A stretch of 64,000 bases of DNA, from assembly GCA_902500055.1 (NCBI GenBank), contig GCA_902500055.1_4131.1; one strand, written 5' to 3'. The notes below the pieces were generated by a model. That model did not search any database and was not told the DNA's origin. It saw nothing but the letters and a program-made list of their open reading frames with translations. Source of the DNA: Escherichia coli (lineage in GTDB: Bacteria > Pseudomonadota > Gammaproteobacteria > Enterobacterales > Enterobacteriaceae). This document shows, piece after piece, positions 42,316 through 44,150 of the stretch (position 1 is the stretch's first letter; each line of letters opens with the position of its first letter). Made by a program: the position numbers and the translations under genes.

Positions 42316-43468
42316 ATGCTACCCTTTGGAAGAATTATCACATCATCAAAAAAGAACATACAACCTTCTGTAACAAAAATAGCTTCATCTGATACAACAG
42401 TTTTTGCCCTTATGTCAGATGGTACGTTGTACAGTAGAGGCTCTCAAGAGTTTGGGCAAATGGGTATAGGTAATATTATAACACAAACCAAATGGGTTTT
42501 GTGCAATACAAACGTAGAAGATATATGGGTGCGGGTATGAGTCAACCTTAATAAAAAAGAAAGATAATACGATGTGGTACGCTGGAAATGGTGCATCATT
42601 CGGATTATCAACTGATAAGTCAACAACATGGGCTTCTGCAAAGATAGTGTTTGATAGAATAACCGCCCTAGGCAAAACAATAAAACAAATTGCAGTTAGT
42701 GCAGGTGCATTAAGCGTATTATGCACAGACAACACTATATGGAATACGGGCTATGGTAGTTATGGTCAACTGGGAAATGGTAGAAGTACCGATTCACTTT
42801 CATCATTTGTACAAGGAACAGTACCTACTGGAGTAACACCATCCAAAATACTGGCAAATTTTCTTATGCAAGGATTTATTGGAACCGATGGGAGATTGTA
42901 TTATACTGGTGCAATATCAGGCGTAGGTACAACCGACATGACGTTATATTCAAAGTACACGTTATGTTCTCAAATAACTAATACCTATACGGTGAAAGAT
43001 TATACAACAAACTCAAGTTACTTCGCTTTTGCTATAGCAAGTAATAATAGTAGTAATAAATTATTTGCATATCATGGTGGTGGACAATACTTTGGTCAGT
43101 TAGCAAATGGTTCTACATCACAAACATATATTTCGTTAAGACAAACAACACAAGCACCAGGTGATATAATAAGAAGCAGTGTGGGTTATTCATATTTTTC
43201 TAATCATATTATAACTTCATTAGGTGTTTACGCAACTGGTTATAACACAGGCGATAACGCAGGTCAATTAGGTATAGGTACACAAACAGATGTCTCAGCC
43301 TATACCAAATGTGTACTACCAATAGAGATGAATATGAATAACGTATATGTTACAGCAACTTTATACAGAACTTACTTAACCGATGGTATACAAATTTACA
43401 GTACTGGACAATATGTTACAGACGGTGGAGTTGCCAGTACTGTATTTGTCAAAGATTCACCATTTTAG
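42316..43468 (+). pseudogene. family C member 13 (diverged), split by in-frame UGA/+1 frameshift (pseudogene or recoding)
   Basis: ORF 42316-42540 (MLPFGRI...EDIWVRV) stops at UGA 42538-42540; skipping one nt continues as ESTLIKKKDNTMWYAGNG in ORF ending 43468, matching spacing in member 7. Confidence 0.55.
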
Positions 43469-44108
43469 GAATATTGTACAAAGTGTATGCGGTTATTTTA
43501 GAACTCTTTTTAAATTCATCGTAAAGATAATTCAAAATTTTGGAGCATTCAATATACTTTTCAATATCTTTATGGATTAATGAGTACTGAAACATTAAAT
43601 CAGATGATATAGTGTAGGTACTACCTTTTAAACTGTTTAAAATATCACAGATTTCAGGGTTTACTGGTACTTCGTCAAAATTATCATCTAAAACATTTAT
43701 TTCAAAATCAAAGCTATCTTTGTTTTTGATTAATTTGATAATAGAATCACCATAAACATTATATTGTTTTAATGGATTTACTACAATGTTAAAAAGATTG
43801 GATGTATTACAATCAATATCCATAAAGTATGTATTATCATTGTACTTAATATTGAAACATCCGTACTCAATAAAATCACCAGGAGTTATTGATGAGTTTC
43901 TTCTCGTTTCAACATAAGAAGCTTTAATTTTGTTTTTATGTAAAAGAGTAATAAATTTCTTAGACTGTTTAGCACCAGCTAAGTAAGTATTATAACTTGG
44001 TCTTTTAAAGATTATAGGACTAGACTTCTCGCCAGAGAAATATTTTTTTATAAATTTACGTTGTTTAACAAAATAGTTTTTATAAAACAAACCTAATTTT
44101 GATTTCAT
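43449..44108 (-). CDS. hypothetical N/K/Y-rich protein
   Basis: 219 aa ORF in AT-rich DNA; AAGGAG RBS before second Met; convergent with family C array. Confidence 0.6.
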   Translation of the reverse strand: MKSKLGLFYKNYFVKQRKFIKKYFSGEKSSPIIFKRPSYNTYLAGAKQSKKFITLLHKNKIKASYVETRRNSSITPGDFIEYGCFNIKYNDNTYFMDIDCNTSNLFNIVVNPLKQYNVYGDSIIKLIKNKDSFDFEINVLDDNFDEVPVNPEICDILNSLKGSTYTISSDLMFQYSLIHKDIEKYIECSKILNYLYDEFKKSSKITAYTLYNIPKMVNL

Positions 44109-44114
44109 CATAAC

Positions 44115-44150
44115 TCCTTATACATCCAGTACTTAATAGTACTGGATTTT
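44115..44150 (+). terminator. palindromic terminator hairpin
   Basis: CCAGTACTTAATAGTACTGG followed by ATTTTTTATT. Confidence 0.45.

Follow-up and report, generated by a model that had tools for sequence, protein, structure and literature searches.

Bidirectional or shared intrinsic terminators lie between convergent bacterial and phage genes, and tandem or fail-safe terminators insulate neighbouring operons. Cis-antisense control is known from several phages, namely from the lambda OOP RNA directed against the 3' end of cII, from P22 sar/ant and from the late antisense RNA of T4 over early genes. In mosaic (lambdoid) phages conserved boundary or linker sequences occur at module junctions. 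Here we analyzed a junction of convergent transcription units on a DNA stretch of 64,000 nucleotides (nt; contig GCA_902500055.1_4131.1), which we call the window. At this junction a plus-strand array of genes for RCC1-like virion proteins runs into gene 233, a minus-strand gene numbered after its homologue in Escherichia phage 121Q. We consider it rather probable that recombination or a deletion left this junction as a scar at the margin of an array whose cassettes are shuffled, and that a terminator hairpin present between the two units in sister lineages was lost here.

The window belongs to an Asteriusvirus jumbo coliphage. Its segment 42300-45300 is 98.8% identical to phage 121Q (NC_025447, 115258-118257, reverse strand) and matches 33 phage records, all of Escherichia or Salmonella phages; the records inspected among these are without exception Asteriusvirus or unclassified relatives. 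The genes of the window are almost all encoded on the minus strand, apart from a plus-strand island at 28381-43468, which according to the map of open reading frames (ORFs) consists mostly of RCC1-like paralogues. The relevant features of the region are the following:

28381-42268, plus strand: island of monocistronic cassettes, mostly RCC1-like virion-protein paralogues (ORF map, RCC1/phrog_4219 matches, hairpins, cassette alignment)
42252-42268, both strands: tenth array hairpin, bidirectional in appearance, at a recombination junction (Turkey5-like on the left, 121Q-like on the right)
42282-42318, plus strand: degenerate promoter block (TAAATATA--ATAAC), Shine-Dalgarno (SD) sequence GGAGG and ATG of the last unit (alignment with nine near-identical cassettes)
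42316-43468, plus strand: last RCC1-like unit, a pseudogene (three-frame translation compared with intact paralogues)
43397-43444, both strands: imperfect stem-loop of two CAGTACTG palindromes with weak U-rich tails, inside the last codons of the pseudogene
43449-43468, both strands: overlap of the convergent ORFs, 20 nt (homology to UE-S1 and ph0011 ends at 43468/43469)
43449-44108, minus strand: gene 233 homologue (121Q gp233, "hypothetical protein"; phrog_34359), a conserved protein found in Asteriusvirus only
44114-44119, minus strand: SD sequence AAGGAG of gene 233, 4 nt downstream of hairpin A on this strand
44124-44157, plus strand: hairpin A, predicted intrinsic terminator of the array family, with its T-run (fold, tails, conservation in nine genomes)
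44154-46651, minus strand: operon of seven small membrane-protein ORFs (44154-46593) and its promoter (ORF and promoter calls)

The plus-strand ORF 42572-43468 and the minus-strand ORF 43449-44111 have the 20 nt at 43449-43468 in common. An earlier note on this DNA had let the array end at 43468, overlapping the 3' end of the minus-strand gene, and the ORF coordinates agree with this. The last array ORF is not an intact gene but the 3' fragment of a frameshifted RCC1-like gene. The junction was compared in nine genomes representing five junction types (the window, 121Q, G17, UE-S1, ph0011, BF17, Ecwhy_1, Turkey5 and JNE01). In the last six of these a hairpin of the array family, termed hairpin B, separates the stop codon of the last RCC1-like gene from that of gene 233; in some carriers the stop codon of one extra small gene replaces that of gene 233 as a flank. 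In four of the six carriers (UE-S1, ph0011, Turkey5 and JNE01) hairpin B is flanked by an A-run and, on the opposite side, by a T-run. The junction alignments revealed no hairpin B in the window, 121Q or G17. A bidirectional terminator was not found at the window junction either, where the ORFs overlap and the stop codons have no hairpin between them. Aligned with UE-S1 and ph0011, the window shows homology through gene 233 up to ...AATATT (Asn-Ile); this homology breaks at 43468/43469, which is the end of the TAG stop codon of the pseudogene. Protein 233 terminates with ...LYNIPKMVNL in the lineage of the window and with ...LYNI plus 0-3 residues elsewhere; the six-residue tail PKMVNL is the antisense of the last codons of the pseudogene and is restricted to this lineage. 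Since the homology breaks at the pseudogene stop, the tail is specific to the lineage and hairpin B is absent, the 20-nt overlap is best explained by a deletion or illegitimate recombination that would have removed hairpin B and left the overlap as its scar.

The array which ends at this junction is built from cassettes. Each consists, in this order, of a promoter block TAAATATAGTATAAT, an SD sequence, an ORF starting with MLPFGRM and a hairpin CCAGTAC-loop-GTACTGG with T-run. Consequently, each plus-strand unit ends in a module composed of (G)CCAGTAC-loop-GTACTGG(C), the T-run, TAAATATAGTATAAT, AAAGGAGG and ATG TTA CC, the start of MLPFGRM. The cassette alignment showed nine near-identical copies of this terminator-promoter module and a tenth, degenerate one; hairpin A is the eleventh terminator and is devoid of a promoter. 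The pattern CCAGTAC-N3-8-GTACTGG occurs six times, compared to 0.00 expected in shuffles, and stem energies in the terminator family range from -6.5 to -15.6 kcal/mol. The 15-nt block TAAATATAGTATAAT contains a perfect -10 hexamer and no -35 hexamer. Its eight exact copies are confined to the island and all lie on the plus strand. The block is also found in BF17 and Turkey5, although the proteins of this region are only 35-47% identical to those of the window; so it appears to be a conserved promoter-type element and more than a trace of recent duplication. A Gly-rich protein of 245 amino acids (aa; 37800-38537, plus strand; GC content 45%, phrog_4474) is embedded in the array, and its gene shares the promoter block (with one mismatch) and the terminator hairpin with the RCC1-like cassettes.

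In the last plus-strand unit, the ORFs 42316-42540 (N-terminal) and 42572-43468 (C-terminal) represent the two halves of one RCC1-like paralogue and correspond to genes 235 and 234 of 121Q. The unit is split by a frameshift near 42525-42535, where ...NVEDIW in one frame resumes as ...GYESTLIKKKDNTMWYAGNG in the next, and this frameshift is common to 121Q. The C-terminal ORF covers 298 aa of a paralogue of approximately 375 aa; it does not encode an intact beta-propeller, and its RCC1 matches are sub-threshold to partial. ORFs 235 and 234 of 121Q are thus one broken gene, and the annotation can be corrected in this respect. Seven records cover just 76% of the query 42300-45300, in two pieces. 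In G17 and phAPEC6, the two of these seven that were inspected, the last unit is an unannotated remnant; in G17 an internal deletion of about 750 bp has spared the N-terminal codons and roughly 250 nt at the end. In the altered promoter of the last unit a perfect TATAAT hexamer survives, 5 nt upstream of its usual position. UE-S1 and Turkey5 possess a last cassette with an intact gene and a consensus promoter.

Hairpin A (ATCCAGTACTTAATAGTACTGGAT at 44124-44147, followed by TTTTTATTAT) was called as a plus-strand terminator. It has a 10-bp stem and the 4-nt loop TAAT, folds with -14.2 kcal/mol (z = -5.3) and is among the strongest of its family. The 10 nt beyond the stem contain eight T on the plus strand and two T on the minus strand (tail GTATAAGGAG). 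By these features it appears to be unidirectional and plus-oriented. The U-rich tract that a minus-strand terminator should have 3' of the stem is not present. The G17 record annotates hairpin A on the gene strand, following the neighbouring genes, and assignment to the plus strand would correct this annotation. Between 43468 and 44124 neither the terminator calls nor a separate scan revealed a further plus-strand hairpin followed by a T-run, which bears out the earlier note in placing the nearest strong plus-strand terminator at 44115-44150. In the window hairpin A is 655 nt away from the last plus-strand stop codon and does not lie shortly downstream of a gene on the same strand. It does so in BF17 and Ecwhy_1, where an extra RCC1-like gene between genes 232 and 233 is directed towards 232 and ends 8 nt before hairpin A. 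These two genomes have gene 233 within the array in inverted orientation, and their hairpin A is a cassette terminator like any other.

In each of the nine genomes hairpin A comes directly after the gene 232 stop codon, with invariant stems and variable loops. On the side of gene 232 it is flanked in all nine by an A-run of 5-7, corresponding to a U-run for RNA coming from the array. Stem and T-run are the same as in the array terminators, with no promoter block following, and nucleotide homology to BF17 starts at 44124, the first base of the hairpin. Most likely, hairpin A serves as a backstop terminator of the array's own family. In an Rfam search of 41500-45500 no match passed the threshold, and those below it were terminator-like and located at the two hairpins.

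Virion proteins are normally late products. Mass spectrometry of phAPEC6 virions detected the array proteins gp003, 005, 006, 007, 009 and 010 and did not detect gp011c, the homologue of protein 233, or the products of the membrane-protein genes (PMC7247149 Table 1). Gene 233 is the last cistron of an operon driven by an early-type sigma-70 promoter, TTGACAGTACT-N10-AGTACTATAA, at 46651-46623. Promoters of the same design are found in the dense small-ORF region at 3-22 kb of the window, and in the related phage CBB such a region was taken as early (PMC5259590). From the array proteins in virions and from the promoter design we infer that the array is late and the minus-strand operon early. The seven ORFs of the operon comprise 104-141 aa each, are arranged mostly back-to-back and encode hydrophobic, membrane-like proteins without a database function, in an order conserved across the genus. 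Their identity to BF17 declines towards the array (84, 73 and 63% for genes 230, 231 and 232).

Gene 233 encodes 219 aa from the ATG at 44108 or 220 aa from 44111. The former is the likelier start codon because the homologues begin with MKSK, and the SD sequence is kept in 121Q, G17 and UE-S1. The protein matches the profile of phrog_34359, a family without known function, over its full length (E = 4e-151, residues 1-220 on positions 1-220 of 220). No match was obtained in Pfam, NCBIfam or PADLOC, and a profile search of the PDB sequences returned only noise (E at least 0.38). Two AlphaFold (AF2) models with pLDDT (predicted local distance difference test) values of 64.9 and 70.4 gave no Foldseek match in the PDB, and their sole match in BFVD is a homologous fragment. 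Among 5.8e9 clustered proteins the relatives of protein 233 form seven clusters, and an exhaustive HMMER search of 1.84e9 representatives found three; all are close relatives, and no homologue outside the clade was detected in either set.

On the minus strand of 44105-44160 base pairing is possible between the region of the gene 232 stop codon (GUCAUAAU) and that of the gene 233 start codon (GUUAUGAU). The resulting extra 8-bp helix extends the hairpin A structure to -18.8 kcal/mol and covers the AUG. It is kept in 121Q, G17 and UE-S1, not in ph0011, and may give translational coupling. A candidate promoter of gene 233 in the 3' arm of the hairpin (AGTACTGGATGTATAAG, resembling early AGTACTGTATAAT) was rejected, as it is not conserved in 121Q and UE-S1 and its transcript would lack the SD sequence.

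Taken together, a scenario can be proposed for the junction. In the layout of the genus, late virion-protein cassettes would converge on the minus-strand gene 233, which closes the early-type operon. Two hairpins of the same family would normally guard this zone, hairpin B between the stop codons and hairpin A beyond gene 233, just after gene 232. In the lineage comprising 121Q, G17 and the window, a deletion that began at the RCC1 stop codon and extended into the final codons of gene 233 would have eliminated hairpin B and created both the 20-nt overlap and the tail of protein 233. With hairpin B lost, a plus-strand polymerase that started at the last cassette, or leaked through the hairpin at 42252, would cross gene 233 and meet no canonical terminator until hairpin A. 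It would copy the whole of gene 233 in antisense orientation (655 nt) and stop before the membrane-protein operon, and early minus-strand RNA would run through gene 233 into the pseudogene. Double-stranded RNA or polymerase collision might then affect gene 233. The antisense stretch contains approximately 13% each of C and G, so it is no obvious Rho target. Decay of the last cassette by promoter degeneration, frameshift and G17-type deletion would limit the antisense flow. Read-through from the array antisense to gene 233, as envisaged in the earlier note, is thus permitted by the geometry, with the plus-oriented hairpin A beyond the gene and the junction terminator missing here, and is anatomically plausible.

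Several points weigh against this scenario. The sole promoter from which the antisense RNA could start deviates from the conserved 15-nt block, the producing unit is a pseudogene with this degenerate promoter, and the terminator at 42252 is relatively strong, with a stem energy of -13.5 kcal/mol on the stronger side of the family range. Some polymerases may also be stopped on either strand before gene 233 by the stem-loop at 43397-43444. This structure folds with -20.9 kcal/mol on the plus strand (z -4.1) and -19.3 kcal/mol on the minus strand (z -3.1), lies 4 nt past the stop codon of gene 233 on the minus strand, carries the tails UAUUUGU and UAAAUUUGU and is kept in 121Q and G17; given the 72 CAGTACTG sites of the window, such a pair of palindromes is expected by chance. 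In Turkey5, hairpin A is retained where hairpin B exists and no plus-strand gene is nearby, and it may have another role. Furthermore, the link between the loss of hairpin B and the decaying last cassette has a single evolutionary event as its basis, and no promoter, terminator, transcriptome or other expression study of Asteriusvirus was found in the searchable literature.

Hairpin A might instead be a relic with negligible antisense traffic. It would once have terminated an RCC1-like cassette between genes 232 and 233 that has since been lost, the last cassette would be transcriptionally dead, and gene 233 would simply be the last cistron of its operon. The gene ending right at hairpin A in BF17 and Ecwhy_1, the degenerate promoter block and frameshifted or deleted gene of the last unit and the strong terminator at 42252 all agree with this explanation. 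The synonymous divergence (dS) of gene 233 also agrees: it amounts to 0.38 compared to 0.11-0.29 for the neighbours and is not reduced, so an antisense RNA, if made, would carry no sequence-specific element and impose no extra constraint. However, a functionless hairpin should decay at 35-40% protein identity, whereas stem, A-run and position of hairpin A are kept in nine of nine genomes, even in Turkey5 and JNE01, which are outgroup-like and do not have the extra cassette. Moreover, the perfect TATAAT hexamer persists in the degenerate promoter. We regard the relic as unlikely, though worth considering. A role of hairpin A in the minus-strand mRNA, i.e. in stabilization, processing, attenuation or translational coupling from 232 to 233, would be compatible with the proposed loss of hairpin B and does not exclude it. 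The hairpin is positioned 4 nt upstream of the SD sequence of gene 233 in the window, 121Q, G17 and UE-S1 and invariably follows the stop codon of gene 232, the extra helix pairs this stop region with the start codon of gene 233, and the G17 record places the hairpin on the gene strand. Yet just two of the ten tail bases are U on the minus strand, the extra helix is lost in ph0011, and hairpin A is separated from gene 233 by an opposite-strand gene in BF17 and Ecwhy_1 and by another gene in Turkey5 and JNE01. The conserved A-run makes sense for the plus strand only, and the sequence of the hairpin is common to the array terminators. Such an mRNA function is therefore quite unlikely.

The remaining explanation concerns gene 233 itself. 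Its Asn/Lys/Tyr/Ile content had been described in the earlier note as extreme and as a hint at separate acquisition, which would make it a foreign AT-rich gene inserted between the array and its terminator. The composition is indeed extreme: among the 58 ORFs of at least 100 aa gene 233 shows the highest content of these four residues (40.5%, z = +3.4) and the lowest GC content (25.3%, z = -2.5), with a dip to 26% over the gene. In addition, array-type terminators flank it on both sides. The acquisition did not stand up to comparison, however. In a tblastn search gene 233 was present in 35 phage records, apparently always at the same locus, as seen in all 11 genomes whose annotation was inspected; these 11 are Asteriusvirus or unclassified relatives. 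The identity of protein 233 to UE-S1, BF17 and Turkey5 is 88, 47 and 35%, compared to 85-98, 63-84 and 36-41% for genes 230-232, and the gene seems to diverge somewhat faster than its neighbours but in step with them. The ratio of nonsynonymous to synonymous divergence (dN/dS) is 0.17 for UE-S1 and 0.24 for BF17 within an overall range of 0.09-0.24, which is indicative of purifying selection. Codon usage, proposed as a check for a foreign gene, turned out more typical than average: under the window's own usage the likelihood of the synonymous choices in gene 233 is above average (z = +1.76), and the GC content at third codon positions (22%) equals that of the array genes. The homologues in BF17 and Turkey5 have a GC content of 31-33%, so the AT-richness appears to be recent and lineage-specific, a drift of the 121Q/UE-S1 branch affecting mainly codon positions 1 and 2. 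No homologue beyond the clade is found among the 1.84e9 representatives, and neither a mobility gene nor a repeat flanks the gene. Compared with horizontally acquired genes or morons, only GC content and amino acid composition are atypical, while the gene is syntenic in all lineages, uses typical codons and is under purifying selection. An import is hardly credible; gene 233 is a resident, core-variable gene that was inherited vertically.

The hairpin at 42252 has an A8 tract upstream and a T7 tract downstream, resulting in tails with 7 T on the plus and 8 T on the minus strand, and folds with -19.2 and -17.5 kcal/mol on the two strands. The preceding gene of the window (41038-42243) shares 92.5% aa identity with the last RCC1-like gene of Turkey5 (window 41038-42268 compared with Turkey5 locus 4858-6087), whereas the two phages share just 35-41% identity in the flanking genes 230-233. 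At the DNA level the window aligns with Turkey5 as far as the hairpin, and with 121Q and G17 from there on. The A-run is missing in 121Q and G17. The 42252 hairpin appears to be a hairpin B of the Turkey5 junction type that was imported together with its cassette, which would explain its bidirectional look. An origin of the A-run as an evolved, conserved minus-strand terminator was rejected, given its absence from 121Q and G17 and its arrival with the Turkey5-like cassette. The alignment indicates a recent cassette exchange between distant lineages, with hairpins as likely crossover sites.

The stems of the array terminators are built from the palindrome AGTACT. This hexamer occurs 296 times in the window compared to approximately 22 times expected from base composition (about 14-fold). 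It is the most over-represented palindromic hexamer and among all hexamers second only to its own sub-word CAGTAC. CAGTACTG is found 72 times, compared to 1.0 +/- 1.0 in dinucleotide shuffles. AGTACT sites span 3187-64000, with none in window positions 1-3186, occupy all three codon phases (84/42/65) and are 2.7-fold denser between genes. Of 154 Ser-Thr pairs, 84 are encoded as AGTACT, compared to 22 expected. Enrichment is also seen for the dipeptides S-T, V-L and Q-Y as such, and selection acting on the DNA or RNA would thus seem to shape the proteins. BF17 and Turkey5 have the enrichment in common (8-9-fold), and the searchable literature yielded no mention of either AGTACT or CAGTACTG for phages. 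The early-type sigma-70 promoters of the minus strand (3400-22000; e.g. 6351, 9694, 18838 and also 46651) carry AGTACT beside both hexamers, in positions that look operator-like. TTGACAGTACT occurs eight times on the minus strand and not on the plus strand, AGTACTTGCA 16 times versus 0, and AGTACT(N0-2)TATAAT 15 times versus once. A phage factor that binds or modifies AGTACT could co-control the early promoters and the CCAGTACT...AGTACTGG terminators including hairpin A. If this were true, gene 233 would be exposed to antisense RNA as a way of switching off an early gene at a set time, and the exposure would not be a chance by-product of the deletion. We consider this idea speculative and very doubtful.

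Two further observations were made elsewhere in the window. The segment 21915-23926 (about 2 kb) is free of tRNAs and of ORFs that reach 60 aa. It harbours 13 CAGTACTG sites, mostly as part of the longer palindrome TGATTCAGTACTGAATAAT, and iteron-like direct repeats (GGCTAAACGGCTAGAT, GGATGGCT) around 22760-22880, and may be an origin or control region. A regular-expression search detected seven compact elements of the form aaaaGGGATTGACTCCGGTCAGTCCCTTTGCTATTAT, in which the terminator stem includes the -35 hexamer TTGACT, and the -10 hexamer comes after the T-tract with a spacing of 17 nt:

4505-4533, 7260-7288, 10266-10294, 13656-13684, 47463-47491, 54225-54252 and 58226-58255, minus strand: terminator/promoter elements aaaaGGGATTGACTCCGGTCAGTCCCTTTGCTATTAT

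The finding at the junction is real but ordinary. A terminator was lost, a paralogue is decaying, and a conserved backstop lies beyond the exposed gene. The junction itself matters little; it illustrates how loss of a shared terminator leaves convergent units overlapping and how a second conserved terminator limits the damage. Of wider value for the biology of Asteriusvirus are the assembly of the virion-protein array from standard terminator-promoter cassettes and the trading of cassettes between distant lineages with crossovers inside the hairpins, which are themselves made of a palindrome under strong genome-wide selection. This exchange at hairpins and the over-representation of AGTACT are more unusual than the junction.

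Compared with the known systems, hairpin B of the sister lineages corresponds to the shared terminators between convergent genes, and the 42252 hairpin of the window looks alike. The window junction differs in lacking such a terminator: a whole gene precedes the next hairpin, the unidirectional hairpin A, so that the units would overlap by at least 655 nt. With phage cis-antisense control the locus shares an opposite-strand transcript of different timing that would be fully complementary to the mRNA, in a geometry permitting double-stranded RNA and polymerase collision. In contrast to these systems, it has neither a dedicated short antisense gene nor a conserved antisense promoter, it would have arisen by terminator loss, and the synonymous sites of gene 233 are under no extra constraint. 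The arrangement resembles fail-safe terminators in that hairpin A follows hairpin B in most lineages, faces the same traffic and is located immediately before the membrane-protein operon, but a complete opposite-strand gene instead of a short spacer separates the two hairpins. Finally, as with the linkers of mosaic phages, the homology to individual lineages switches at hairpins, from Turkey5 to 121Q at 42252-42268, to BF17 from 44124 onward and to UE-S1 up to 43468. Unlike those linkers, the boundaries described here consist of terminator-promoter cassettes that look functional and belong to a tandem array of paralogues within a single genus.

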